Origin: Mustelus asterias
Lineage: Eukaryota
Direction: 5' to 3'
Length of the DNA: 64,000 nucleotides
Assembly (NCBI RefSeq): GCF_964213995.1
Contig: NC_135805.1
Location: 81,654,001-81,718,000, forward strand
The first letter of the stretch is position 1; each line of letters starts with the position of its first letter. A model generated the notes under the pieces. That model was not told where the DNA came from. It made no database searches and saw only the letters and a list, made by a program, of their open reading frames with translations. Position numbers and translations under genes: made by a program. Below are positions 5,540-57,755 of the stretch, one piece after another.

Positions 5540-8500
5540 TTACCTATAACCCTCTATCTTACTAAGTTCCATGTACTTATCTAAAAGTCTCTTAAAAGAC
5601 CCTATCGAATCCACCTCCACCACTGTTGCTGGCAGCCCATTCCACGCACCCACCACCCTCTGAGTGAAAAACTTATCCCTGACATCTCCTCTGTACCGAC
5701 TCCCCAGCACCTTAAAACTGTGTCCTCTTGTGGCAACCATTTCAGCCCTGGGAAAAAGCCTCTGACTATCCACTCGATCAATACCTCTCAACATCTTATA
5801 CACCTCTATCAGGTCACCCCTCATCCTTCGTCTCTCCAAGGAGAAAAGGCCGAGCTCACTCAACCTATCCTCATAAGGCATGCTCCCCAACCCAGGCAAC
5901 ATCCTTGTAAATCTCCTCTGCACCCTTTCTATGGCTTCCACATCCTTCCTATAATGAGGCGACCAGAACTGAGCACAGTACTCCAAGTGTGGTCTGACCA
6001 GGGTCTTATATAGTTGCAACATTATCTCACGACTCCTAAACTCAATTCCTCGATTGATGAAGGCCAGTACACCATACACCTTCTTAACCACAGCCTCAAC
6101 CTGCACAGCTGCTTTGAGCGTCCTATGAACTCGGACCCCAAGATCCTTCTGATCTTCTACTCTGCCAAGAGTCCTACCATTAATATTATATTCCGCCATC
6201 GTATTTGACCTGCCAAAATGAACCACCTCACACTTATCTGGGTTGAACTCCATCTGCCACTTTTCCACCCAGTCTTGCATCCTATCAATGTCTCGCTGCA
6301 ACTTCTGACATCCCTCCACCCTATCCACAACACCACCAACCTTTGTGTCATCAGCAAACTTACCAACCCATCCCTCCACTTCCTCATCCAGGTCATTTAT
6401 AAAAATCACAAAGAGTAAGGGTCCCAGAACAGATCCCTGGGGCATTCCACTGGTGACCGACCTCCATGCAGAATATGACCCATCTATAACCACTCTTTGC
6501 CTTCTGTGGGCAAGCCAGTTCTGGATCCACAAAGCAATGTCCCCTCGGATCCCATGCCCCCCCTCACTTTCTCAATAAGCCTTGCATGGGGCACCTTATC
6601 AAATGCCTTGCTGAAGTCCATGTATACTACATCAACTGCTCTTCCTTTATCCATGTGTTTAGTCACATCCTCAAAAAATTCAATCAGGCTCGTAGGGCAT
6701 GATCTGCCTTTGACAAAGCCATGCTGACTATTCTTAATCATATTATACCTCTCCAAATGTTCATAAATCCTGCCTCTCAGGATCTTCTCCATCAACAGGA
6801 CCTTGGTGAGACCACATTTGGAATATTGTGTGCAGTTCTGGTCACCTCACTATAAGAAGGATGTGGAAGCGCTGGAAAGAGTGCAGAGGAGATTTACCAG
6901 GATGCTGCCTGGTTTGGAGGGTAGGTCTTATGAGGAAAGGTTGAGGGAGCTAGGGCTGTTCTCTCTGGAGCGGAGGAGGCTGAGGGGAGACTTAATAGAG
7001 GTTTATAAAATGATGAAGGGGATAGATAGAGTGAACGTTGAAAGACTATTTCCTCGGGTGGATGGAGCTATTACAAGGGGGCATAACTATAGGGTTCGTG
7101 GTGGGAGATATAGGAAGGATATCAGAGGTAGGTTCTTTATGCAGAGAGTGGTTGGGGTGTGGAATGGACTGCCTGCAGTGATAGTGGAGTCAGACACTTT
7201 AGGAACATTTAAGCGGTTATTGGATAGGCACATGGAGCACACCAGGATGATAGGGAGTGGGATAGCTTGATCTTGGTTTCAGATAAAGCTCGGCACAACA
7301 TTGTGGGCCGAAGGGCCTGTTCTGTGCTGTACTGTTCTATGTAACTTACCAACCACTGAGGTTAGACTCATTGGTCTATAATTTCCAGGGCTATCTCTAC
7401 TCCCTTTCTTGAATCAGGGAACACATCCGCAATCCTCCGGAACCTCTCCCGTCTCCATTGATGATGCAAAGATCATCGCCAGAGGCTCGGCAATCTCCTC
7501 CCTCGCCTCCCACAGTAGCCTGGGGTATATCCCATCAGGTCCCGGCGACTTATCTAACTTGATGCTTTTCAAAAGATCCAACACATCTTCTTTCTTAATA
7601 TCTACATGCTCAAGCTTTTCAGTCTGTGCAAGTCTGCACTACAACCACCAAGATCCTTTTCCATAGTGAATACTGAAGTAAAGTATTCATTAAGTACCTC
7701 TGCTATTTCTTCCGGTTCCATACAAACTTGCCCACCGTCACACTTGATAGGTCCTATTCTTTCACGTCTTATCCTCTTGCTCTTCACATACTTGTAGAAT
7801 GCCTTGGGGTTTTCCTTAATCCTGCCTGCCAAGGCCTTCTCATGACCCCTTCTGGCTCTCCTAATTTCTTTCTTAAGATCCTTCCTGTTAGCCGTATACT
7901 CTTCAAAATCTCAAACATTACCTAGCTTCCTGAATCTTTTGTAAGCTTTTCTTTTCTTCTTGACTGGATTCATTACAGCCTTTGTACACCACGGTTCCTG
8001 TAACCTACCATAACTTCCCTGTCTCATTGGAACGTTGCTATGCAGAACTCCAGACAAATATTCCCTGAAAATTTGCCACATTTCTTCCATACATTTCCCT
8101 GAGAAAACCTCTTTCCAATTTAAGCCTCCAATTTCCTGCCTGATAGCCTCATAATTCCCCTTACTCCAATTAAACACTTTTCTAATTTGTCTGATCCTAT
8201 CTCTCTCCAATGCTATTGTAAAGGAGATAGAATTATGATCACTATCTCCAAAATGCTCTCCCACTGAGAGACCTGACACCTGCCCAGGTTCATTTCCCAA
8301 TACCAAATCAAGTACAGCCTCTCCTCTTGTAGGCTTCTCTACATACTGTGTCAAGAAACCCTCCTGAACACACCTAACAAACTCCTCCCCATCTACATCC
8401 CTTACTCTAGGGAGATTCCAATCAATATTTGGGAAATTAAAATCTCCCATCATGACAACTCTTGTTATTATTACACCTTTCCAGGATCTGTTTCCCTATC

Positions 8501-8886
8501 TGCTCCTCAGTAGCCCTGTTACTGTTGGGTGGCCTATAGAAAACACCCAGTAAAGTTATTGACCCCTTCCTGTTCGTAACCTCCACCCACAGAGACTCCG
8601 TAGACAATCCCTCCATGGTGTCCATCTTTTCTGCAGCCGTGACACTATCTCTGATCAACAGTGCCACTCCCCCACCTCTTGTGCCTCCCTCCCTGTCCCT
8701 TCTGAAACCCGGCATTTGAAGTAACCAGTCCTGTCCCTGAGTCATCCAAGTCTCTGTAATGGCCACCACATCATATTTCCAAGTAGTGATCCACGCTCTA
8801 AGCTCATCCACTTTGTTCACAACACTCCTTGCATTAAAATAGACACATCTCAAAACTTCAGTCTGAGTGCTCCCCTTCTCTATCAC
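5540..8886 (-). pseudogene. CR1 ORF2 (APE endonuclease plus RT), frameshifted and split by an insertion
   Basis: Collinear ORF pieces 8437-8886, 7911-8453, 7602-7832, 6484-6795 and 5540-6532 closely resemble the intact ORF at 57756-60659. Confidence 0.9.
6797..7342 (+). mobile_element. 5'-truncated CR1 (subfamily B) nested antisense inside CR1-A
   Basis: ORF 6803-7270 is almost identical to the C-terminus of ORF 37885-40899 (…HTRMIGSGIA). Tail GTTCTATGT; AAC duplicated at 6794-6796 and 7343-7345; the host reads continuously once the insert is removed. Confidence 0.93.
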
Positions 8887-8986
8887 CTGCCTATCTTCCC
8901 TCTCACACTATCGACAAGCTTTCTCTATTTGTGAGCTAACCTCCTCTCTCCCAGTCACTTCAATTTGATTCCCACCCCCAACCATT

Positions 8987-25790: not shown

Positions 25791-26888
25791 GGGTCCGATT
25801 TTACCATTTTGATTCTAAGTGCCGAATCTGGGCGCAATTCAGATCCGACTTGCCCCCATACGCACTTAGCCTGAAAAAAAAATCGCGGGGCTTATTGCAC
25901 CCGAAATGCTGCAGCTCCGATTGGAGCTTTGATCTGCGCATGTGCGGTGAAAAAAAATAGAAAAGCGCGCCCCTGTCACATCGCTCCCGGGCTGCAAAAA
26001 GCGGATAATGGGGCCCGGAAGCAAAAGGCGGGAGCGATGGCCCCCACAGATATCGCCCCACCCCCACAACATAACTGTCTCCCTTATCCACCCACCCCCC
26101 CCCGCTACCCAGACCGATTATGACCCTCTGCCCCCCCTTCTCCCTCCACCGACCGCCCACAGAGTGGCAGCGGGCCCCCCCTCCACCCCCCCCCCCACCC
26201 CCCCCCCTCCATCCCCACCAGAGAACGATCTGGCCTCCGCCCGCCCCCTTACCAGAGAGCGATATGGCCTCTCTTTCCCACCCCCCCACCAAAGAATGAT
26301 CTGGCTTCCCTTCTCCCTCCCCCCCACCAAAGAATGATCTGGCCTCCCTCCTCCTGCCTCCTCCTCCCCCCACCAGAGAATGATTGGGCCTCCCTCCTCC
26401 CCTACCACCCAACCAGAGATACATCTGACCCGCCTCCCTCCCCCCCCCACCAGAGAACGATAGGACCTCCTTCTTCCCCCCCCCCCTTCACCCTCACCAG
26501 AGAATGATCTGCCCCCCCCCCCCAACCACCGATCTAAGTCAGAGAGCCATTGAAAGCTCTGAACTTACCTCTTCAGAAGCTGAAGCGCCCGAAACAGACC
26601 TTTGCCGAGCGTGTCTGTTTCGCGCCCAATCTGGACACGCGAACGCGATGGTAAAGGGGGAAATGCTGTTAAAGTTGGACGGGCAGCCCATTAATTCAAT
26701 TTAAATGCATGCAAATGCATTTAAATCGCCGTTACGCCCATTTTGGGCACAGTTCAGATCGCGGCTATTTTTGGGCCTTGGTAAAGTGGGCATCTGCGTG
26801 GACGTGGATCGTGCTAATCGCCTCATGCCCGACTTTACCAAGTTTTCACGCCTGAAAAAGGGCACGACGCAATGGTAAAATCGGACTC
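25791..26888. mobile_element. CpG-rich non-autonomous DNA transposon with 18-bp TIRs
   Basis: GGGTCCGATTTTACCATT at 25791; AATGGTAAAATCGGACTC ending at 26888 (17/18 match). No coding capacity. Confidence 0.8.
26140..26530 (+). repeat. C-rich minisatellite, about 35-40 bp unit (CCCCCACCAGAGAATGATCTGGCCTCCCTCCT)
   Basis: About 9 imperfect copies of ACCAGAGAA(C/T)GAT separated by C runs. Confidence 0.8.
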
Positions 26889-27422
26889 AGTGTCAGAAAC
26901 ATTGAAGCAAATTGCATATCTTACATTCGGGAGAATGTATGTGGCATATGAGAACGTAAAAAGAAAATACATTTTGTTGCTAAATGGTAGGAGGAAATAA
27001 AATACATATACATGTCTATATATAAACCCCACAAAAAGGGTTAAGCCAATGAGTGCTAAATCGTTTTCTAAATGTATAATATATTTCCTCGACTCTCCTT
27101 TCGGATGACATTGTGGCTGGAAGTGGAGAGGGACTTCTGTCTGCCAGTCTGACTCCTTTATGACTCTGATCCATTTTCCTGCCTGAGGACGATGACAATA
27201 GCAAGTTAGATTCTTCCTGACTGCTACTCGACATCTCAACATTACTTCTCTGCCATCAATACAAGAAGGCATTTTGGAATATTTCCATGATCTTGTGCTC
27301 CCAACATGGAGCAATGCTCAGAGGGAGCATCAGTTTGCAAAATCACCCCTCTGGTACAAAAGTACAGATCAAAACCAGAGATTTCAAGCTTTTGAATTCC
27401 ATCAAAGAGGCCACCAAGGACG

Positions 27423-27673
27423 TGTGGTGAACCACTGTTACTACATGTATGTGCCTGGACACACCCGTGCTGCACCTGGCCCAAGATCCCTCCCTTTCCA
27501 CCTGAGACTCCTCCCTTTCCACCCAGAGTGGGGTATAAAGGTGATGGTCCCTCCTCCTTCCCTCAGTTCAGACCAGGTCAGCTACAAGAGTGTGCTCCTG
27601 TTCTCTGTGAATAAAAGCCTATTAGTTTTCCCTCACTCTCAGAAGTCTTCGCGTCGTAATTGATAGTGCATCA
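27423..27673 (+). repeat. 5' LTR
   Basis: TGTGGTG...GCATCA; TATAAAG at about 27534 and AATAAA at 27610. I count 9 substitutions against the 3' LTR. Confidence 0.95.
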
Positions 27674-27702
27674 ATTTTATCCACAGAGAAAAAAAAAACA
27701 GA

Positions 27703-28781
27703 ATGGAGCAGCTTTTAAAGCCTACACTCTAAATTTGGATCCGTAAGCGCTGGGGGCAGCCAACGGCTTTAATCACTGGCTGAAGTGCTTCGAAGCCTTC
27801 CTCGGAGCCTCCACGATCGTCCGGTCCGATGCAGACAAGCTGCACGTGCTCAACGCCCGGGTAAGCGACGCAGTTTTCACCACCATCTGTGACGCAGAAA
27901 CGTACGCTGATGCGCTAGCGCTCTTAAAGAGCCAATACAGCCAACAGACGAATGAAGTCTACACCAGGCATCTGCTAGCTACACGTAAACAGCGGCCGGG
28001 CGAATCAAATGCACAGTTCCTCCGCGAACTACGTGCGCTCGGCAGGGCCTGTAACTGCAAGGCCGTATCCGCTGCGCAGTATACAGAGGACATGATCCGC
28101 GATGCCTACGTTACGGGCATCGCATCCAACTACATTCGACAGTGCCTGCTAGAACAAGGTGGGCTAGATCTTCCAAAAACTGTAGCGCACGTTGAATCCC
28201 TCGAAGTAGCATCACGTAACCTCGAGGCTTACACGCCCGACCACGCGACATCGTGGGCCTCACAGCCAATATCATCCCAGTACCTAGGAGGGCCTCCGAC
28301 TTATGCCACACAACGCCCCACCAGTGACTCAACGGCCGCGGCTGCGGCAGCCCCAAAGTGTTACTTTTGCGTCCTAGCGAAACACCCCCGACAACGCTGC
28401 CCGGCAAGGGAGGCGTTCTGCTCAGGGTGTGGAAAGAAAGGCCACTACGCGAAAGTCTGCAGGGCGAAGTCGAAATCGAATAGCGCAGCATGCGACCCAA
28501 GGGAAAAGAAAACACGATCGCCATCAGCCGCGTGGGAGTCAAGGGGGCCGCCATCTTGGACACCAGCGACCATGTGTGAGCCCGGGGAGCTGCCATTTTG
28601 GACGCCGTCGGCCCCGTGGGAGTCAAGGGGGCCGCCATCTTGGACGCAGCCGACCGCATGCGAGACAGGGGAGCTGCCATCTTGGACGCCGGCTGATGAC
28701 TCTTCGGGATCTATGGTGGCAGCGATCCAGCTGGGCCAGTCTCGTCCACATCAGCTCGCCAGGTCTATGATGGACATATAG
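27703..28781 (+). pseudogene. Gypsy gag (frameshifted near the start)
   Basis: ATG at 27703; KQRPGES; zinc knuckles CYFC...H....C and CSGCGKKGHYAKVC. Confidence 0.85.
28520..28695 (+). repeat. 42-bp tandem repeat (84-bp dimer x2) at the end of gag
   Basis: GC(C/T)GCCAT(C/T)TTGGAC starting at 28547, 28589, 28631 and 28673. Confidence 0.85.
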
Positions 28782-31356
28782 GTAAACGGCCGTGAGGGAA
28801 ATTTTTTGTTTGACAGCGGGAGTACGGAGAGCTTTATCCACCCCGATACTGTGCATCGCTACGCCCTTTCGGTACGGCCAGTCAAACAAACCCTTTTACT
28901 TGGCCTCAAAGTCCCGCTCCGTGGATGTCATTGGGTACTGTGTGGTGACTCTTACCGTTTGGGGTACCGATTACGCAAATTTTAAGCTCCTGGTGCTCCC
29001 ACACCTCTGCGCTCCCGTACTCTTAGGCCTCGATTTCAAGACACATCTTAAGAGCGTCACGCTACAGTACAACGGGCCCCTTTCCCTGATCTCGGTCTGC
29101 AACCCTCAGTTCCTGGACTACCCATTGCGCACCACCTGTGGTCTTTCGACCCTCCAAGTCACCCCTCCATCGCTATTCGAACACGTCACCCCCGATTGTA
29201 AGCCCATTGCCACTAAGAACAGATGGTACAGTGCGGGGGACGGGACCTTCATTAGGTCCGAGGTCCAGCGGCTCCTGACGGAAGGGATCATTGAGGCGAG
29301 CACCAGCCCCTGGAGAGCGCAGGTGGTAGTGGTCAAAACTGGAGAGAAACACCGGACGGTCATCGATTATAGTCAGACCATCAACCGGTACACGCAGCTG
29401 GATGCGTATCCCCTTCCGCACATATCCGACATGGTCAATCGGATTGCGCAATATAGGGTGTTCTCCATGATCGACCTCAAATCGGCCTACCACTAGCTCC
29501 CCATCCGCCCGGAGGACCGCAAATATACAGGTTTCGAGGCAGATGGCCGCCTCTACCATTTTCTTAGGGTTCCCTTCGGCGTCACCAACGGGGTCTCGGT
29601 CTTCCAGTGTGAAATGGACTGAATGGTGGACCAGAACGGGCTGCGGGCTACGTTTCCGTACCTGGATAACATCACCATCTGCGGCCATGATCAGCAGGAC
29701 CATGATGCCAACCTTAATAAATTCCTCCGTACGGCCGCTCTCCTAAATCTGACCTACAATAAGGAGAAGTGTGTCTTCCGCACTCACCACCTCGCCATCC
29801 TGGGATATGTGGTGGAAAATGGGGTCATCGGCCCCGATCCCGACCGCATGCGCCCCCTTATGGAACTCCCCCTCCCAACCACGCTTAAAGCACTGAGGAG
29901 ATGCCTGGGCTTCTTCTCATACTACGCCCAGTGGGTCCCTAATTACGCGGATAAGGCCCATCTGCTTATCAAATCCACCCTTTTTCCCCTGTCGGGAGAG
30001 GCCCGCTCGGCCTTCAACCGCATCAAGGCGGACATCGCAAAGGCCACGATGCATGCTGTGGACAAGTCAATCCCCTTTCAAGTGGAGAGTGATGCGTCTG
30101 ACTTCGCCCTGGCCGCCACCCTCAACCAGGCAGGCAGACCCGTAGCCTTCTTCTCACGAACCCTTCAGGGCTCGGAAATCCGACACTCCTCAGTCAAGAA
30201 GGAGGCTCAGGCCATCGTCGAAGCAGTGCGACACTGGCGCCACTACCTAGCTGGCCGACGGTTCACCTTGCTCACGGACCAACGTTCAGTGGCTTTCATG
30301 TTCAACAACGCGCAGAGGGGCAAGATTAAGAATGATAAGATACTGAGGTGGAGGATTGAGCTCTCCACCTACAATTATGATATCTTATACCGACCCGGGA
30401 AGCTCAATGAGCCTCCAGACGCCCTGTCTCGCGGAACATGTGCTAGCGCGCAGGTGAACCAACTACGGATTCTCCACAATGACCTCTGTCACCCGGGGGT
30501 CACCAGGGTCTATCATTTTATTAAAGCCTGTAATCTGCCCTATTCTGTTGAGGATGTCCGGTCTATAACCAGACACTGTCCGGTCTGCGCAGAATGTAAG
30601 TCGCACTTCTATTGGCCGGATCGGGCACACCTCATAAAAGCCACCCGCCCTTTTGAACGCCTCAGCGTCGATTTCAAAGGGCCCCTTCCTTCTTCTGACC
30701 GCAACATCTATTTCCTCAACGTGCTAGATGAGTACTCCCGATTCCCCTTTGCCATCCCCTGCTCGGACATGACCTCAACCACGGTCGTCAAGGCCCTGCA
30801 CGGCCTCTTCACCCTGTTCGGGTACCCCAACTATATCCACAGCGACCGGGGATCCTCATTCGTGAGCGATGAGCTGCGTCAGTACCTGCTCTCCAAGGGC
30901 ATAGCCTCAAGTAGGACTACCAGCTACAACCCCAGGGGTAACGGACAGGTGGAGAGGGAGAACGCGACAGTCTGGAAGGCCGTTCTTCTAGCGCTACAGT
31001 CTAAAGGCCTTCCAGTCTCCCGCTGGCAAGAGGTACTCCCCGATGCACTACACTCAATCCGGTCCCTCCTCTGCACAGCCACCAACGCCACCCCCCATGA
31101 GCGGATGTTTGCTTTCTCGAGGAAGTCCTCCTCGGGAATCGCACTACCGTCGTGGCTGGCGTACCCAGGCCCAGTTCTGCTCCGGAGGCATGTACGACCC
31201 CATAAGTCGGATCCCCTAGTTGAAAAAGTCCAGCTCCTCCATGCCAACCCCCAATATGCCTATGTGGCATACCACGATGGGCGGGAGGACACGGTCTCTA
31301 TCCGGGACCTGGCGCCTCCGGGTGCCCCGGAGCCCACGATGACCCCACACCCCTAA
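28782..31356 (+). pseudogene. Gypsy pol (protease, RT, RNase H, integrase) with frameshift and premature stops
   Basis: FDSGST protease; SPW/IDY/DLKSAYH and YLDN in RT; ESDASD RNase H; HHCC and DFKGP/SDRG/GQVER integrase. In-frame stops at 29494 (TAG) and 29620 (TGA). Confidence 0.92.
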
Positions 31357-31667
31357 ATCCCTCTGTTCAGGTAGCACCAGGTCCACTTACATCTTTGCCT
31401 ATTGTACGCAGCTCGCCTGAGCCCCCGGAGTCACCACGCAGGACCAGACCAGAAGGGACGACGGCGGATTCGAGCAGCTCCACCCTGCCATCGGAAGCAA
31501 CCCCCAACTGGTACTGCGGCGGTTTCAATGACTAGTCAAGCCGCCCGACAGGCTGAACCTGTGAAGGGACGACACCTCACCTCAGCTTGTGACTTTTCTA
31601 TGTATATATACTCCTGTACATATGGTTCCACCCACTCCACCGGACTCTTTTTTAAAGGAGGGGTGAA

Positions 31668-31918
31668 TGTGGTGAACCACTGTTACTACATGTATGTGCC
31701 TGGACACACCCATGCTGCACCTGGCCCGAGACTCCTCCCTTTCCACCTGAGACCCCTCCCTTTCCACCCAGAGTGGGGTATAAAGGTGATGGTCCCTCCT
31801 CCTTGCCTCAGTTCAGACCAGGTCAGCTACAAGGGTGTGCCCCTGTTCTCTGTGAATAAAAGCCTATTAGTTTTCCCTCACTCTCAGAAGTCTTTGCGTC
31901 GTAATTGATAGTGCATCA
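31668..31918 (+). repeat. 3' LTR
   Basis: Direct repeat of 27423-27673, preceded by the polypurine tract. Confidence 0.95.
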
Positions 31919-33009
31919 GGACGTTATTGCCGATAAGAGCAAAGAGAATATAGGGAGAATGGAAACAAAGGCAAGTGCAAATGTCTCCCCTTCTTATCCC
32001 CTACTTACACAATCACAAAACCATTGCACTTGGCATTTTGTAACCTAGACTCTTTTTGGAGGTGTCTTGGAGCCACAATTCTAACACATTCCATTTTTAT
32101 AATTATGAGCTGGAAAAACAACCAGTCATCACTGGCTGTGGCCCAGAACGAGTCAGCATCCAATAGCATATTGCTGACTAACATTTCCAAGCCCCAGCAC
32201 AACTACATGTATCTCAAAGGATGCAGTTAGTGGACTTGAGGAGGTAACATTGAGCAAGTCAGAATGTATATATTAGAATGGAGAAGCAAGTGCTCATGGT
32301 AGAGGAGCAGCAGGATACTGTTGCTCAGATGCCCATATAAATGTTATGAATGGCTTCCTGTATTTTGGAAATTCAGTGAAGTGAATTTGTACAAATGTAT
32401 CAAACTTGCACTGCAATTCAATGGAAAATGAATTGCAAAAATTGCCATGCTTAACAATGCTTCAGTCACTTGTTTGGTACATATATGTAGGAAGCAAATT
32501 GGTTGATACTGCGGATATCCCCACATTAGTTAGGAAAAGAACGGAAGCACAACAGTAGAGGAAGGATGAACCTTGGCTACCACTGGCAGTGGCATCTCTA
32601 TTTTTAATTTGCACTGACCCAAGAAAAGGACAGTGATGAAAGACAGCAAAAAAAGGAAAAGAAAACAGAAGAACAGACCGAAAATGATTAAAATTTGTTT
32701 GTCCCTGTTACACGGAGCTTATTTTTGGCACCACATTTAAATCTGTGCATGCGACCTTGGCTAGGACTTGCACCAGTAGATTAGGAAACAAAAACATTTG
32801 CTGGAGATCTTTGTCTCAGTCCAGTCTGAATGCACACTGTTCAAAAGAAGACCATGTGGATGTAACAGCAAATCACAGAATCAGCGCTGGAGGGGTTTCT
32901 CAAAGCTGATCAGGCGAGATTGCTGTATGGCCAATTTCATGGATTTATTAATTTCACCGGTGGAATTATATTGCTCGTGGGATATTATAACCTTTGGGGT
33001 AGATTTTAT

Positions 33010-37884: not shown

Positions 37885-40800
37885 TCAAGCTATTCCACTC
37901 CCTATCATCCTGGTGTGCTCCATGTGCCTGTCCAATAAACGCTTAAATGTTTCTAAAGTGTCTGACTCCACTATCACTGCAGGCAGTCCATTCCACACCC
38001 CAACCACTCTCTGCGTAAAGAACCTACCTCTGATATCCGTCCTGTATCTCCCACCACGAACCCTATAGTTATGCCCCCTTGTAATAGCTCCATCCACCCG
38101 AGGAAATAGTCTTTGAACGTTCACTCTATCTATCCCCTTCATCATTTTATACACCTCTATTAAGTCTCCCCTCAGCCTCCTCCGCTCCAGAGAGAACAGC
38201 CCTAGCTCCCTCAACCTTTCCTCATATGACCTACCCTCCAAACCAGGCAGCATCCTGGTAAATCTCCTCTGCACTCTTTCCAGCGCTTCCACATCCTTCT
38301 TATAGTGAGGTGACCAGAACTGCACACAATATTCCAAATGTGGTCTCACCAAGGTCCTGTACAGTTGCAGCATAACCCCACGGCTCTTAAACTCCAACCC
38401 CCTGTTAATAAAAGCTAACACACTATAGGCCTTCTTCACAGCTCTATCCACTTGACTGGCAACCTTTAGAGATCTGTGGATATGGACCCCAAGATCTCTC
38501 TGTTCCTCCACAGTCTTCAGAACCCTACCTTTGACCCTGTAATCCACATTTAAATTTGTCCTACCAAAATGAATCACCTCCCATTTATCAGGGTTAAACT
38601 CCATTTGCCATTTTTCAGCCCAGCTTTGCATCCTATCTATGTCTCTTTGCAGCCTACAACAGCCCTCCACCTCATCCACTACTCCACCAATCTTGGTGTC
38701 ATCAGCAAATTTACTGATCCACCCTTCAGCCCCCTCCTCTAAGTCATTAATAAAAATCACAAAGAGCAGAGGACCAAGCACTGATCCCTGCGGCACACCG
38801 CTAGCAACCTGCCTCCAATCCGAAAATTTTCCATCGACCACCACCCTCTGTCTTCGGTTAGACAGCCAGTTACCTATCCAATCGGCCAACTTTCCCTCTA
38901 TCCCACACCTCCTCACTTTCATCATAAGCCGACCATGGGGGACCTTATCAAACGCCTTACTAAAATCCATGTATATGACATCAACTGCCCTACCTTCATC
39001 AACACACTTAGTTACCTCCTCAAAAAATTCTATCAAATTTGTGAGGCACGACTTGCCCTTCACGAATCCGTGCTGACTATCTCGGATTAATCCGCATCTT
39101 TCTAAATGTTCGTAAATCCCATCCCTAAGGACCCTTTCCATCAATTTACCAACCACCGAAGTAAGACTAACCAGTCTATAATTACCAGGGTCATTTCTAT
39201 TCCCTTTCTTAAACAGAGGAACAACATTCGCCATTCTCCAGTCCTCTGGCACCATCCCCGTGGACAGCGAGGACCCAAAGATCAACGCCAAAGGCTCTGC
39301 AATCTCATCCCTTGCCTCCCACAGAATCCTAGGATACATTTCATCAGGCCCAGGGGACTTATCGACCTTCAGTTTATTCAAAACTGCCAAGACATCCTCC
39401 CTCCGAACATCTATTTCCTCCAGCCTATTAGCCTGTAACACCTTCTCTTCCTCAAAAACATGGCCCCTCTCCTTGGTGAACACTGAAGAAAAGTATTCAT
39501 TCATCACCTCGCCTATCTCTACTGACTCCATACACAAGTTCCCACTACTGTCCTTGACCGGCCCTAACCTCACCCTGGTCATTCTTTTATTCCTCACATA
39601 AGAGTAAAAAGCCTTGGGGTTTTCCTTGATCCGACCCGCCAAGGACTTCTCATGTCCCCTCCTAGCTCTCCTAAGCCCCTTTTTCAGCTCATTCCTTGCT
39701 AACTTGTAACGCTCAATCGAGCCATCTGAACCTTGTTTCCTCATCCCTACATAAGCTTCCCTCTTCCTTTTCACAAGACATTCCACCTCTTTTGTGAACC
39801 ATGGTTCCCTCACTCGGCCATTTCCTCCCTGCCTGACAGGAACATACCTATCAAGGACATCCAGTATTTGTTCCTTGAAAAAGTTCCACTTTTCATTAGT
39901 TCCTTTCTCTGACAGTTTCTGTTCCCAACTTATGCCCCCTAATTCTTGCCTAATCGCATCATAATTACCCCTCCCCCAATTGTAAACCTTGCCCTGCCGT
40001 ACGGCCCTATCCCTCTCCATTGCAATAACAAAAGACACCGAATGGTGGTCACTATCTCCAAATTGCTCTCCCACAACCAAATCTAACACTTGGCCCGGTT
40101 CATTTCCCAGTACCAAATCCAATGTGGCCTCACCTCTAGTCGGCCCATCCACATATTGTGTCAGGAAACCCTCCCGCACACACTGCACAAAAACTGCCCC
40201 ATCCAAACTATTTGACCTACAAAGGTTCCAATCAATATTTGGAAAGTTAAAGTCCCCCATGACAACTACCCTGTGACCCCCACACATATCCATAATCTGC
40301 TTAGCAATTTCTTCCTCCACATCTCTATTACTATTTGGGGGCCTATAGTAAACTCCTAGCAACGTGACCGCTCCTTTCCTATTTCTAACTTCAGCCCATA
40401 TTACCTCAGTGTGCAGATCCCCCACGAAGTGCCTTTCCGCAGCCGTTAAACTATCCTTGATTAACAATGCCACTCCTCCACCTCTTTTACCAGCTTCCCT
40501 ACACTGAGTGAAACATCTATACCCCGGAACGTCCAACAACCATTCCTGTCCTTGTTCTACCCACGTCTCCGTAATGGCCACAACATCGTAGTCCCAAGTA
40601 CCAATCCACGCCCCAAGTTCATCTACCTTGTTCCGGATGCTCCTTGCATTGAAGTAGACACACTTCAACCCACCTTCCTGTCTACCAGTACCCACCCTTG
40701 ACCCTGATACCATCCCCAATACCTCACCACCCTCACTGACTTCTGGACTACAACTCCCTTTCCCACTCCCCTGACAAATTAGTTTAAACCCCCCTGAAGA

Positions 40801-40899
40801 GCCGTAACAAATTTCCCTCCGAGGATATTGGTGCCCCTCTGGTTCAGGTGCACCCCGTCCTGTTTGTACAGGTCCCACCTTCCCCAGAACGTATTCCAA
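37885..40899 (-). CDS. CR1 ORF2: APE endonuclease plus reverse transcriptase (first in-frame ATG at 40713)
   Basis: 1004 codons without a stop; FNARS, ITETW, GDFN, SDH, QHGF, DFSKAFD, PQGSVLGP, KFADD. Confidence 0.95.
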   Translation of the reverse strand: MEYVLGKVGPVQTGRGAPEPEGHQYPRREICYGSSGGFKLICQGSGKGSCSPEVSEGGEVLGMVSGSRVGTGRQEGGLKCVYFNARSIRNKVDELGAWIGTWDYDVVAITETWVEQGQEWLLDVPGYRCFTQCREAGKRGGGVALLIKDSLTAAERHFVGDLHTEVIWAEVRNRKGAVTLLGVYYRPPNSNRDVEEEIAKQIMDMCGGHRVVVMGDFNFPNIDWNLCRSNSLDGAVFVQCVREGFLTQYVDGPTRGEATLDLVLGNEPGQVLDLVVGEQFGDSDHHSVSFVIAMERDRAVRQGKVYNWGRGNYDAIRQELGGISWEQKLSEKGTNEKWNFFKEQILDVLDRYVPVRQGGNGRVREPWFTKEVECLVKRKREAYVGMRKQGSDGSIERYKLARNELKKGLRRARRGHEKSLAGRIKENPKAFYSYVRNKRMTRVRLGPVKDSSGNLCMESVEIGEVMNEYFSSVFTKERGHVFEEEKVLQANRLEEIDVRREDVLAVLNKLKVDKSPGPDEMYPRILWEARDEIAEPLALIFGSSLSTGMVPEDWRMANVVPLFKKGNRNDPGNYRLVSLTSVVGKLMERVLRDGIYEHLERCGLIRDSQHGFVKGKSCLTNLIEFFEEVTKCVDEGRAVDVIYMDFSKAFDKVPHGRLMMKVRRCGIEGKLADWIGNWLSNRRQRVVVDGKFSDWRQVASGVPQGSVLGPLLFVIFINDLEEGAEGWISKFADDTKIGGVVDEVEGCCRLQRDIDRMQSWAEKWQMEFNPDKWEVIHFGRTNLNVDYRVKGRVLKTVEEQRDLGVHIHRSLKVASQVDRAVKKAYSVLAFINRGLEFKSRGVMLQLYRTLVRPHLEYCVQFWSPHYKKDVEALERVQRRFTRMLPGLEGRSYEERLRELGLFSLERRRLRGDLIEVYKMMKGIDRVNVQRLFPRVDGAITRGHNYRVRGGRYRTDIRGRFFTQRVVGVWNGLPAVIVESDTLETFKRLLDRHMEHTRMIGSGIA

Positions 40900-41705
40900 T
40901 TATCCACGTATCTGAAACCCTCCCTCCTACACCATCCCTGCAACCACATATTTAACTGCACTCTCTCCCTGTTCCTCAACTCGCTATCACGTGGTACCGG
41001 CAACGTACCAGAGATGACCACATGTTTCGTCTTGGCTCTCAGCTTCCAGCCCAGCTCCAGAAATTCCTGCTTTAAATCCCCGTCCCTTCTCTTACCTATG
41101 TCATTGGTACCAATGTGCACCACGACTTGTGACTGTTTCCCCTCCCCCTTCAGAATCTGGAAAACACGGTCTGAGACATCACGGACCTTGGCATCCGGTA
41201 GGCAACATACCATCCGTGAGTCTCTTTTGCTGCCACAGAACCTCCTATCTATCCCTCTAACTAACGAGTCCCCAATAACTATCGCCCTCCCGCTCTCCCC
41301 CTTTCCCTCCCGAGCCACAGAGACGGACACAGTGCTGGAGATCCTCTCACTGCGGCTCCCCACTGGTATGTCATCCCCCTCAACCGTATCCAAAGCGGAA
41401 TACTTGTTGCTAAGGGGAACGACCACCGGGGATCCCTGCACGGACTGCTTCCTCCCAGCCCCTCTCACCGTCACCCATCTGTTTTCAATCCTCGGAGTAA
41501 CTGTATTCCTAAAGCTTGTGTCTATGGCCATCTCTGCGTCCCTGATGATCCTAAGTTCATCCAACTCCAGCTCCAGTTCCCTGACACGGTTTTGGAGGAG
41601 CTGCAGATGGGTGCACTTCCCACAGGTGTAATCAGTAGGGACACTGTCGTCGTCCCTCACCTCAAACATAGTGCAAGAGGAACATTGCACTGCCTGCACA
41701 CCCAT
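40779..41705 (-). CDS. CR1 ORF1: Zn finger/leucine zipper plus SGNH esterase
   Basis: 308 aa; CSSC..CGKC, LQLLQNRVRELELEL, IGDS, HIGTND, DGVH. Confidence 0.93.
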   Translation of the reverse strand: MGVQAVQCSSCTMFEVRDDDSVPTDYTCGKCTHLQLLQNRVRELELELDELRIIRDAEMAIDTSFRNTVTPRIENRWVTVRGAGRKQSVQGSPVVVPLSNKYSALDTVEGDDIPVGSRSERISSTVSVSVAREGKGESGRAIVIGDSLVRGIDRRFCGSKRDSRMVCCLPDAKVRDVSDRVFQILKGEGKQSQVVVHIGTNDIGKRRDGDLKQEFLELGWKLRAKTKHVVISGTLPVPRDSELRNRERVQLNMWLQGWCRREGFRYVDNWNTFWGRWDLYKQDGVHLNQRGTNILGGKFVTALQGGLN

Positions 41706-41898
41706 CCCCTCTAGATACCTTGCCAGTACCAGGTAGAAAGTGCAAAAATGAATTCAACTCACCCCTGCTCGCCCTTTCAGCCTAAGCCCTGTGAGCCAAA
41801 GTCTTATAGCTCACACTCTGCTTCCCACACACTCCCCTGCCCGCTCCCGACGCTGCCCGCTGTATACTGCAGCCTACCTTTTATACTTCACGCGCTTA

Positions 41899-42578
41899 AA
41901 AAACCCTTCCCAGACTCCTTTGCTGCCCACTTCTAGTTTTCACTTTAAACTTGAAAAACTGCTGTTAAAGTAAAGGCCAAAAAAATACACACACTACCTG
42001 ACTAATTAAATAAATAAACAATTCAATTAATCCAATTAATCTCTCACCAGCACTGCTGCCTTCAATCACCCCTCTCAGCTTGCTCCAGTGGATCAATGAG
42101 GGGGAACCTCCCAGGTAACTGACTTTTAAAGTTAAAATAAAAACCCTTCCCAGACTCCTTTGCTGCCCACTTCTAGTTTTCACTTTAAAAATGAAAAACT
42201 GCTGTTAAAGTAAAGGCCAAAAAAATACACACACTAGCTGACTAATTAAATAAATAAACAATTCAATTAATCCAATTAATCTCTCACCAGCACTGCTGCC
42301 TTCAATCACCCCTCTCAGCTTGCTCCAGTGGATCAATGAGGGGGAACCTCCCAGGTAACTGACTTTTAAAGTTAAAATAAAAACGCTTCCCAGACTCCTT
42401 TGCTGCCCACTTCTAGTTTTCACTTTAAACTTGAAAAACTGCTGTTAAAGTAAAGGCCAAAAAAATACACACACTAGCTGACTAATTAAATAAATAAACA
42501 ATTCAATTAATCCAATTAATCTCTCACCAGCACTGCTGCCTTCAATCACCCCTCTCAGCTTGCTCCAGTGGATCAATG
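41899..42578 (-). repeat. 240-bp tandem monomers (about 2.8 copies) forming the CR1 5' end
   Basis: Exact 240-nt periodicity; only about 4 variable positions among the copies. Confidence 0.95.
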
Positions 42579-44670
42579 AACTAGGACATTATGCATTTTG
42601 GTCCTGATGCACTGTCTTAGCAACTTGAACAGGGGTTGCTTGTAGATCCCCTCATTTTGAGTCACCAAAAGCATACAATCACAGCATGGAGAAAAATATA
42701 CCAAACTGTATTGGCATTAGGACCCAGCCCTTATTTACCCTTTACGAATCTTAAAACCATCTAATGTTGCTCTGTTATAAATGACAGAATTGTGCATGTT
42801 CTCATAGAAAGGCAAGGAGTCTAGGTGGGGCTGTCTAGTTTCCAGAACAGTTTAAAGAATCCTTCTCTACCAATGAGATCAAAAGCCTCTGAGAGGTCTG
42901 TGAAGACAGTGTAGAGTGGTCAGCATTGTTCGCAGCAACTCTGCTGTAATAGGCAAAGTGAGAAAATCATGTTGATCTGCCAACTCTGAAGCCACACTGA
43001 GACTTTGGGTTGACGTGTGATGTCCAGGTGTGCACTCTAGTCAGAACAAAGACCTCCCACATGATACTTGACAAGATGATGCCTTGGTCATTGTTATAGT
43101 CTCCTTTGCTTTAGCACAAGGTGATTAAATTTGTATTATGCATGTCTTGAGGCACAAATTTTTTCTTAAGCAGAATCTGGAAAGGGTGAAACCATGATCA
43201 GACAGGTAACAAGGCTGGCCCATTGCACTTGGGGTGTGCTGGCACCTGTGGTGGTGGTCTACCCAGGCTAGGGTAGAGTAAAGGATCAGGGCAGCTAATG
43301 AAGTCAAACCAAGGCTTTACTTGATGCAATTTTTCAAAGTATCTCAGCCTGTTGGTTAAGATGAAGCATTGGGTTAAGCCCGGGATGGGGTGCAATGCCT
43401 CATCCTGTCAGCTTGGATCTTTGTCCCTTATGTGGATCCATATATTGGATTCAATTTGAATTGGGTTTTTTTGGATGGAATAAAACTACTGAAAGCTATC
43501 AAAAAAAAGCAAAGGAGTAACAGTTCATGGAGATGCTGCAGCAGTGCCAATTTTCCAAATTTGATGATTTCATATCCAGGAACTTAACCACTGGCAAGAT
43601 GCTGAGCTCTATTATGGCAGGTTCACTGTCCAGCTTCTCCATGATAGAAGCCTGGAATGGCATTGAGAGCTTCTTCAATGACATTGTTCTCTATTGCATA
43701 GCGTTAAAGAGAGTTCTCCCCACAACTTTCCATCCACTTGCTACGTTCAGTAATGATCATCCCAAACTTTGTCTTCAAGAAGGCTGATTTGGCTGTTGCT
43801 GGGCTTGTGACTTTCTTGATTGCCTCATACATCCCTCTAGCATCCCGGGATTCAGCAGTAGATTGTTTGCTGTTGCAGAGTTTCAACTCGTATTGATTGG
43901 TTCAGTGCCGCACAGTCTGTTGAGACTTGATTCCGGCAACTCAGAGAGCACCTAGATTTTGTTTACTGGCGACTTGCTTGTGGTTCTTGAGGGCTCCACT
44001 CTTGGTTGCAGTAACTGGCCCCATTTCAGTCCAACAAGCCTCAAACCAGTCAGTATTCCTCTGATCTCTTTTCCCGTAAGCAGTGAGTGCAGAGTTATGG
44101 ATGATGTTGTGCAGATGATCCCACTTTGACGCTACATTCTAGTCTTTGGCGTTGTTGTCCAAAAAGCCTGTTCAAAAATGTTGAGGAACATAGGAACTCC
44201 AGGGTTCTTTCTGGATCAGTTCTAAGGCAAGTGTTGATCTGAGGACAACCTTTTTATAGGAGTGGTATAGTTTCCTTGGTTGGGGCCTGACCTTGCTATA
44301 TACCAGGTCAGTGTCACAGTCAGCCACATGATACCTATGAGTCAGGAGGACACTGTTAGACCTGGTTATGATTAAATCCAGCTGGTGCTAATAGCATGAT
44401 GTCAGATGCCTCCAGGACACCTTCTGAAATGCCCTGCATGAGAAGTAGCTGTTCATCACACACAGTCCATGGTAACAGCATAGTTCCAGCAAACTCTGTC
44501 CATCTTCATGCACCCTGCCAATTCCCTAGTGCCCTCTGCATATTGACCAAGCTGTCTAGTTGGTACCCACCCTAGCATTGAACTGTCTCAGAAGGTATAT
44601 CCCTCCATGCTGGGAATTCTGCTGATGGCAGCATCAAGTGCCTCAAAGTATTGATCCTTCATATTTAGGG

Positions 44671-48400: not shown

Positions 48401-49657
48401 TCTCTAATACAAAAAGAGCCACTGGGAGCAGTGACCACTCCAAGTACTATAATGGAGCCAGAGTCTCTGGATTAAGGTGAATGGAGCATTACGTCCTCTC
48501 TTTTTCCCTTGGGTAATAGTTGGCAGGCAGATTATCAGCCTGTCTAAACAGAATCATGAACTCTCCTTCTGTGGCCATCAAACTCTGGAGTGGGGCTTGA
48601 GCCCACTGGATTCTGGTTCAGAGGCAAGGCTACCGACAGAGCCGTAAGACCTCCTATGCTGGTGGTGAGACCCATTCTTCGAACCTGTGGTAGAGTGCTG
48701 TATCTAACCATGCTGAAGCGGATCTTGGAGTACCTAATGTTGGCAATTCCTGGTTCTATGTGATACTCTGCTAGTGTGAAGAATAGAATAACAACACAGT
48801 GAGGATGGCATTGCAATAGTGAGAGCAGCAGTACCCCAAACTCAGAAACATCATCCCATGTCTTGAACAGATAAATTGTGGGACTAAGACTATATGGGGA
48901 TGAGGCTGCTACAAAGAATTCTCCCTCCCTCTCTCTCTCCACTTGGAATGCTTCAGATTGTTCTCTTCCACCAGGTCACCTGAGTCATAGTGGTAACCTG
49001 GTGGGAAATCTGCTGGAGCCTTGGACCTGGGTTTTTACGTCCCAATGCTGAACCAATGGGGATCCCTCCCGTGCCTGTGCTGCCTATATGGCATTTTCTC
49101 CATGGTCACCTTTTATTCACAGAGATCACAAAGCCTCAGAGAACTCTGCCTGCTCCTCCAATTATTGAGCCGCAGCCTGTGAGCTGCCAGTGGAACATCT
49201 TTGTGACTGTGCTCCCTTCTCTGAGAGGGGCAGTCCACAGAAGCCTTGTCCTCTGACTCTTCCTCCATGCTGCCGTGAGAGATGGTAGGCCAATTCCACA
49301 CTGACTACACCCCCCCCCCCTGATGAAAAATTCCACTCTGGGCTGGAGGCAGGATCACAGTGCCAGGAAACTTCCCGTCTCCTGATTCCCAACTCCAACA
49401 TGAAAACAGACCCACTTCCTGTTCCACCTGCTGCCATTTACACTCAGTGGATGAAGAAGGAAAGCATTATAGCTAAATTATCAAAACATTAGTACTTTAA
49501 AACTACTTGATATCAAAGTTAGTTGATAGTTTACTGCAACATTTCAACATTTTTTATTGTCCTTGTATCATCATACCACTTCTTACTTTCTTTTCTAGAT
49601 CTCACATAATTGACTTAAATTACTTTTTTGATTTCTGCCCTCTTCTTTCCCTTCTGA

Positions 49658-56885: not shown

Positions 56886-57755
56886 TTTGCTCACATTTCT
56901 GATATAAAATTAATGCCATGGCCAACTCAGGCTTTTATTATCATGTTGGGAGTCAGTCAGCTTGCGGATATGTGATATTTAGTAAACTAAAGTCATGTCC
57001 TTTATTTCAAAAGTTTACAGTACAGTGATTTAATCCATAATTAGTTTTTTTTAAGCTTCCCCTCCAGGGATGTAAAGCAAACAATTTAGACCAATGTTGA
57101 TTCTCAGTGACACTTTTATTTACAAACTTACAGTTTGCAGGTGGTTGTAATTTTTTATAGCACCTTTGCACACAGTCGTCTGGCACGCTCAGTGCAGATG
57201 GCTACAGAACATTCCTAATAATTGCACAGTCCTGAGGAATTTATTCATCTCATTGGAAAAGCTTTTCCACAGCTCTCTAAAATAATCTGAACTGATAACT
57301 GGATAGGTAGATCTGGCCAAGTAATCTTAATGTTAATGAAAGTTCCTTCTTGAGACATTTTTACCCCAGAAATCTGCCAAGGTTGGTGGGATCAGAGTGC
57401 ATGTTCTTTCATTAACATGCTAAAGTGGGCACCTGGACCATGTAAGGCACATCAAAGATACCTGTCATGAGCAAAACCTCAGAAAGTCAGGCAGAAGTGT
57501 TTGGGCTTCAGGACGGAGAGGAAAGCTAGCTCACTCCACTAGGAACACGATAATCGGCAGCCGCACCTTATAACTGGTCTCCGTAATAATTATTTCCCAA
57601 AAATAACACCCCCTTTAGAGGTTCTGCTTCTGCCACTGTCAACCATATGCCTAGTTTCTGGCCATCCTGCTGCACCCTTCTATTGTTAAGTCAGGCATAC
57701 GTCAGACCTACTGATGTTATCAGCCATTTGAAAATTTCAGTATGCCTTCTGATGT

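Follow-up and report, generated by a model that had tools for sequence, protein, structure and literature searches.

A clade of animal Ty3/gypsy elements without a chromodomain probably primes itself in a Tf1-like manner, using a segment of its own LTR RNA and not a tRNA. This reading, drawn from sequence comparison, is carried by a complementarity between the primer-site region and the LTR, by its fixed place 1 nt past the LTR, and by covariation of the two arms over 21 families. Since one arm occupies the position of a tRNA site and its letters track the element's own LTR, it is best read as the binding site of an element-derived primer. Self-priming had been proposed in an initial annotation of one copy, and is now strongly supported by the clade-wide covariation, the fixed 1-nt spacer and the negative controls.

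The window, i.e., the whole stretch of 64,000 nt that was analysed, contains a decayed 4.5-kb Gypsy element. Its LTRs (27423-27673 and 31668-31918) are 251 bp each and differ at 9 positions (96.4% identity). The TG...CA LTR pair, the target-site duplication, the polypurine tract and the order gag-PR-RT-RH-IN are those of Ty3/gypsy elements, and the top solved-structure match is the Ty3 Gag-Pol (PDB). The gag of the window element is 49-80% identical to 11 named Mustelus proteins; its nearest named proteins are from Mustelus and Scyliorhinus for gag and from sharks and rays for pol, which makes a cartilaginous fish the likely host. The features of the element are as follows:

27418-27422, forward strand: left target-site duplication, GGACG
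27423-27673, forward strand: 5' LTR, 251 bp, TG...CA
27534-27539, forward strand: TATAAA, candidate TATA box
27563-27568, forward strand: initiator-like TCAGTT, with its A (27565) 31 nt past the TATA start; candidate upstream transcription start
27601-27616, forward strand: LTR segment complementary to the primer site, the predicted self-primer; predicted cut at 27616/27617
27604-27609, forward strand: initiator-like register shared by the clade (position 11 = 27606; 4/6 matches here); second candidate start
27610-27615, forward strand: AATAAA poly(A) hexamer within the predicted primer
27617-27669, forward strand: predicted inner stem, 27617-27627 with 27658-27669, directly 3' of the primer duplex
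27674, forward strand: one-base spacer, unpaired, that separates the LTR end from the primer site
27675-27690, forward strand: non-tRNA primer-binding site, with one mismatch (27681) private to the window copy
27703-28781, forward strand: gag, disrupted close to its start, with two CCHC knuckles
28782-31356, forward strand: protease-RT-RNase H-integrase with stops and frameshifts; RT motif YLDN; no chromodomain
31654-31667, forward strand: polypurine tract and spacer preceding the 3' LTR
31668-31918, forward strand: 3' LTR, with a second copy of the partner segment at 31846-31861
31919-31923, forward strand: right target-site duplication, GGACG

The C-terminal tail of gag (28519-28686) is built of three to four tandem repeats of 42 nt (...GPPSW-like units). 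Elsewhere in the window we noted a C-rich minisatellite (26129-26526) about 1 kb upstream of the Gypsy element, a 240-nt tandem repeat in three copies (41899-42618), and LINE copies with endonuclease and RT at 37885-41753 (reverse strand), 57753-60659 (forward strand) and 5540-8907; an upstream ORF of the first of these bears a GDSL esterase domain.

As the initial annotation had stated, no TGG follows the 5' LTR where it ends at 27673, and a primer site of the tRNA type is thus absent. One base past the LTR, positions 27675-27690 are the reverse complement of LTR positions 27601-27616 at 15/16 positions, a match that covers the AATAAA; the distance from the TATA box to this partner, which had been put at about 65 nt, is 67 nt (TATAAA at 27534 to 27601). 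A 15/16 match was reached by 0/3000 LTR shuffles and by 0/3950 internal 16-mers, and inverted matches of at least 15/16 within about 250 nt upstream occurred at 17 of 9086 sampled window positions. A fourth match to the 16-mer, at 49111-49126, has no LTR flanks and extends over 19 nt only, and was taken as chance.

A host tRNA, half-tRNA or other small RNA could in principle be the primer, with the LTR match being secondary, and half-tRNA primers do exist in Copia lineages according to excerpts of PMC6317226 (all PMC articles are cited here from excerpts). The site, however, lacks the TGG and was overlapped by no Rfam match (two weak matches lie upstream), and in the survey described below it varies among 21 families and within a family, always tracking its own LTR. 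We therefore consider a host RNA primer hardly credible, and the element-derived primer remains the preferred reading.

Loci of the clade were sought with an alignment of 26 pol relatives, and comprised 10 from host DNA in bacterial assemblies and the best 80 of 520 metagenome matches. Among the resulting 91 loci (the window and 90 others), most of which were short of upstream DNA, 43 gave a gag-start match and 38 were scorable; the rearranged locus L050 was dropped. A flanking repeat pair was present in 28 of the 91 loci, and for 22 the agreement of the 5' and 3' LTRs alone sufficed to fix the LTR end. In 21 of these 22 elements the duplex scored 10-19 at the primer-site position, against maxima of 6-10 for the internal-sequence null; the remaining one, L015, showed 14 bp after its LTR end was reset to the repeat boundary. 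Several of the bacterial genome assemblies contain much DNA of animal hosts, in which LTR elements are numerous (152 matches in the assembly G001), and three loci (L001-L003) represent whole elements that were assembled as circles.

The duplex-bearing set consists of 35 loci in 21 families (20 besides that of the window), whose pol sequences are 43-66% identical; in 13 of the 35 (truncated, circular or single-LTR loci) the LTR end was picked partly by the duplex, and the LTR-side anchor was always picked by best pairing. None of the 35 has a TGG-type tRNA primer site, and the spacer between LTR and primer site is one base throughout, an A in 31 of them. Three scorable loci (L040, L041 and L055) had no duplex, and no LTR pair was found there either; L040 and L055 belong to the clade by the tree described below. 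Over the first 12 positions, pairing is complete in 26 loci, with 11 pairs in 7 and 10 pairs in 2 more.

The compensatory change that the initial annotation had proposed to test for was found both among the 21 families and within the window element's own family. Watson-Crick pairing at positions 1-12 amounts to 97% within families and 62% across families. At positions 4-12, 183 of 189 cells are paired, compared with a maximum of 135 in 20000 permutations, and at positions 13-16, 58 of 84 compared with a maximum of 48 (not strict probabilities, because the families are related); pairing at positions 17-20 is at chance level. Positions 1, 2, 4, 5, 6 and 10 are paired in all 21 families with 2-4 pair types each. 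With a free anchor, 12/12 pairing was reached by 2 of 420 cross-family pairs versus 16 of 21 own pairs.

Individual loci suggest how the arms are kept matched. In L011, position 7 is changed in both LTRs and in the primer site relative to five sisters that are 97.7-99.1% identical, and in L026 a change is present in both LTRs while the primer site is still of the old type. If the primer is copied back into the primer site in plus-strand synthesis, which would keep the arms matched, a new variant should be present in the two LTRs before it reaches the primer site; L026 would then be the predicted intermediate and L011 the completed state. Copying would be incomplete in L013 and L049, because both have inherited the same mismatch at position 14.

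The arms lie only 23-67 nt apart, so that correction of one by the other through template switching is conceivable, and an inverted repeat could be kept at the DNA level in this way or by a DNA role at the LTR end (e.g., in integration), with no part in priming. Decayed copies nevertheless retain single-arm mismatches (the window copy, L010, L014 and L044), the arm stands in place of the tRNA site and is not seen in the other clades of these hosts, and the element would still require a primer. A DNA-level origin is thus highly improbable, and priming by the LTR segment remains the preferred reading.

Copies of the window element's own family were obtained as contigs of four public sequencing runs from three studies, aligned to the primer region. 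At 27681, every covering contig in all four runs (41, 24, 15 and 9 contigs) has the pairing base, and the mismatch is therefore private to the decayed window copy. A change at 27606, seen in three of the four runs, is matched by a change of its partner at 27685, seen in all four, and loose contig ends suggest two more matched changes (27605/27686 and 27608/27683); these matched changes lie on short, unphased contigs and hence were not seen on one molecule.

As controls, 20 regions were taken from the genomes behind the clade loci. Other Gypsy lineages in the same host DNA yielded 15 LTR-like pairs, all of which score 5-8 and are without a primer-site duplex; TGG occurs within 6 nt of the called end in 9 of the 15, and six have doubtful LTR calls. 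The sole in-clade element with an LTR pair in the control set scores 14. The same host DNA (L091-L110) holds many Gypsy elements of Gmr1-like order, i.e., with the integrase before the RT, and with TGG-type primer sites.

A quick tree of 44 RT-RNase H rows, which left out L009, L061, L075 and three named proteins and contained no labelled chromovirus, joins the 27 clade rows at an SH-aLRT of 100 on a long branch, apart from the 17 other Gypsy RTs of the same hosts. The Chromo family was found in none of 26 members at E values up to 0.1, and none was listed among 120 relatives. Relatives of the pol protein (54-90% identity) come from sharks, rays, Hydra, Nematostella, Xenia, Anneissia, Argonauta, Trichinella and Seison, and the hosts of the named relatives thus include cnidarians, a crinoid, a cephalopod and a nematode; a search of viral contigs gave no relative. 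The RT catalytic motif reads YxDN, with Asn for the second Asp, in 63 of 81 readable proteins and YxDD or FxDD in the other 18.

Several known groups were considered as a home for the clade. The Gmr1-like group was set aside: the order is RT-RH-IN, no integrase was found upstream of the RT, and in the tree the IN-RT elements of these hosts are placed apart from the clade. The tRNA-primed Gypsy clades, among them Mag and CsRn1, were set aside on the absence of the TGG-type site in the 35 loci. The clade was also not filed under the Tf1/sushi group of chromoviruses, because two tested features of that group, the chromodomain and the three-duplex pretzel, were not found. A motif search, Atlas and PDB provided no name, and the RT motif was absent from the four supplements of PMC6238403 that were searched; that the clade corresponds to Cigr-1 or to a MolGy clade is only a lead.

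According to RNA folding predictions, the LTR segment would fold onto the primer site within the element RNA. The fold of 27601-27690 has a z-score of -3.5, no shuffle out of 200 being equally stable, and the predicted pair probabilities of the local duplex are 0.9-1.0 at most positions. Across the 21 families, the stem directly 3' of the primer exceeds all of 2000 shuffles. By the same kind of comparison, neither side duplex of the Tf1 pretzel stood out from shuffles across these families (244/300 and 219/300), and one of them is predicted in the window copy only. A second hairpin spanning the LTR end (27658-27676), described in the initial annotation, is indeed present in the sequence but probably does not form: at -2.6 kcal/mol it is outcompeted, since it competes with the main duplex and with the inner stem 27617-27627/27658-27669, which had been overlooked and whose formation excludes it in the folding. 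In RNAs that start at 27565 or 27601 this hairpin is predicted to pair with a probability of about 0, and in an RNA that starts at 27606 with one of 0.04-0.15. With a start at 27565, positions 27593-27600 are predicted to pair with 27699-27710 over the gag start codon; such pairing of upstream-of-primer sequence with the leader was not above shuffles across the clade. In 19 of 21 families the first ATG follows the LTR by only 15-50 nt, and it is often situated at the duplex edge (in L012 the duplex runs into it); translation and priming may therefore compete.

An element-derived primer might also act in trans, as a trimmed premature poly(A) RNA, or over a long range from the copy in the 3' LTR (31846-31861). 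The segment is present in both LTRs, the covariation is blind to cis versus trans, and the hexamer stands at the 3' end of the primer in most families, all of which would suit such a source. On the other hand, the prediction strongly favours the local fold, the conserved stem begins at the first base past the primer, as for a cleavage junction in cis, and poly(A) cleavage takes place 10-30 nt downstream of the hexamer and not at the hexamer itself. We regard supply in trans or from the far end as very unlikely, and prefer the local fold.

The junction at which the RNA would be cut is conserved. In 18 of 21 families the last three primer bases are AAA, each of these positions being an A in 20 of 21, and RCCT is what mostly follows. 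AATAAA or ATTAAA is found in 14 of 21 families, its last base 0-1 nt short of the end of the duplex, and in two more the weaker variants AGTAAA or TTTAAA are found. Five families have none of the 13 listed hexamer variants in the partner: L063 resembles a mutated ATTAAA, GTTAAA is present in L012 and L015, and no similar sequence is seen in L037 and L087.

It might be argued that concealment of the 5' poly(A) signal, as in HIV-1, is the chief role of the duplex, and that priming occurs by other means. Besides the frequency of the hexamer, the predicted folding speaks for such a role: in the window copy, five of the six AATAAA bases are predicted to be paired at the 5' LTR, whereas at the 3' LTR the hexamer is predicted to be mostly open. 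The pairing is nevertheless 12/12 in L012, L015, L037 and L087, whose partners lack a listed hexamer, and since the pairing persists in L037 and L087, where no hexamer is recognisable, occlusion cannot be its main reason. Hiding would further leave unexplained that the arm is always 1 nt past the LTR, that TGG is absent, and that L011 carries a double change. Hiding as the main function is very unlikely, and self-priming remains the reading that we retain. As a second function of the duplex, however, hiding of the 5' signal is plausible from the predicted folds, although not universal. The initial proposal that one structure could serve both roles is accordingly supported in part, strongly for priming and as a plausible second role for occlusion.

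In the HIV-1 5' poly(A) hairpin, the AAUAAA lies in a stem close to the RNA's 5' end, within R, and the primer is a tRNA. The clade resembles this arrangement in that the AAUAAA is predicted to be held in a stem near the RNA 5' end; it differs in that one arm is outside the LTR, at the primer site, and for this reason the local fold is specific to the 5' end. A sequence similar to a 5' splice site (CAG/GTCAGC, 27574-27582), noticed by eye between the upstream initiator and the primer segment, could bind U1 and thereby dampen the 5' poly(A) signal. In sushi LTRs, the AATAAA is unusually close to the LTR end (excerpts of PMC3601003).

The initial annotation had also set the partner apart from the transcript's 5' end, a claim on which the evidence is divided. 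The window copy speaks for that claim, with TATAAA at 27534 and TCAGTT 29 nt further on giving a predicted start near 27565, 52 nt before the cut, whereas an initiator-like peak at position 11 of the clade points in the opposite direction. Of the 21 families, 19 have a G at position 10, 14 have an A at position 11 and 15 have a T at position 9. The match to the initiator consensus TCAKTY, as given in excerpts of PMC3601003, peaks at position 11 with 3.95/6 (best other register 3.1; 0/20000 random registers), a register that was noticed before being tested and whose conservation could have another cause. Only 3 of the 21 families have a TATAWA in the 110 nt that precede the cut (at 65, 68 and 83 nt), and TATA spacing therefore does not fix the start. 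Judged from these motifs, the odds are about even between a primer of about 11 nt that begins at the initiator-like motif and has the Tf1 length, and a longer 5' extension from an upstream start. Since pairing is above background up to position 16, some transcripts probably start further upstream than position 11. Two starts are possible in the window family in view of the precedent of Tf2, in which alternative starts decide whether the RNA is copyable (excerpts of PMC5341516).

Taken together, the following course may be proposed. With the LTR segment folded onto the primer site, the RNA would be cut directly 3' of this segment, presumably by the element's RNase H as in Tf1, and the freed LTR piece would prime minus-strand DNA in place of a tRNA. 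In most families this primer would end in the poly(A) hexamer, so that the duplex would also hide the 5' signal, and the stretch from hexamer to poly(A) site, left by a cut behind the hexamer, could act as the repeat in the first strand transfer. This repeat would measure 10-30 nt, which would make for a workable layout. We offer a wider interpretation only tentatively, as possible rather than probable: a widespread animal Gypsy lineage may have come to self-priming independently of Tf1/sushi, with the poly(A) signal as the 3' end of the primer, the duplex hiding the signal, and the cut behind it freeing the primer and leaving the repeat between signal and poly(A) site. In the cartilaginous-fish family, starts near 27565 (TATA-driven) and near 27606 (primer-proximal) may then separate the messenger from the copyable genome.

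Self-priming is on record for Tf1/sushi, Tcn1 and TAR/Houba, and has so far been proven in the fission-yeast element Tf1. Like Tf1 and Tf2 of Schizosaccharomyces pombe, Tj1 of S. japonicus and the Tf1/sushi group, the clade has the Ty3/gypsy domain order and an LTR-complementary primer site just past the 5' LTR, with no tRNA site. The duplex is of a length similar to that of Tf1, whose primer consists of the first 11 bases, cut by RNase H (PMC7175516), and whose cDNA end bears a DNA copy of the primer site (PMC11042837). All fission-yeast Tf-type elements carry a chromodomain, and the Tf1 pretzel has side duplexes (PMC10085805); the clade, in contrast, has neither the chromodomain (0/26 members) nor conserved side duplexes, and shows instead a local hairpin directly past the primer. 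It further differs from Tf1/sushi in that its primer usually ends in a poly(A) hexamer, and in its hosts, which are the animals given above for the named pol relatives.

In plants, self-priming has likewise been predicted from sequence for Tcn1 (gypsy) and TAR/Houba/Osr-1 (copia), on the basis of at least 10 complementary bases starting 0-5 nt past the LTR (PMC6317226), a pattern that the clade also shows; Tcn1, which is grouped with Tf1/sushi, and TAR, a copia element, belong to other hosts and other lineages. With Mag A/B/C, CsRn1, Gmr1, Cigr-1 and MolGy the clade shares a compact size, a 5-bp target-site duplication and gag CCHC knuckles, but unlike the Mag elements of Culex, which have tRNA-Leu/Ser/Arg primer sites (PMC3286476), it has no tRNA site.

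In the excerpts of the literature searched (PMC3601003, PMC6317226, PMC4600332, PMC3286476, PMC6934838, PMC5445492, PMC11042837, PMC6238403, PMC7175516, PMC10085805, PMC5341516 and PMC8556966), we found no description of self-priming in an animal non-chromovirus Gypsy clade, nor of a primer that ends in a poly(A) signal. Within these excerpts, tRNA-free priming is confined to Tf1/sushi and a plant copia lineage. A broad animal clade that lacks the chromodomain and has a different side structure would thus, if the reading is true, be a second case of self-priming among gypsy elements. One review considers hairpin priming to be ancestral and tRNA priming to be late (PMC3601003), and whether self-priming is ancestral or has evolved repeatedly would become testable on the tree. 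The 21 natural variants define the likely cleavage junction (AAA followed by RCCT, with G at position 10) sharply enough for biochemical tests. LTR finders that demand a tRNA site would miss or mis-score such elements, and in the host, self-primed elements would be expected to escape silencing by tRNA fragments at the primer site.
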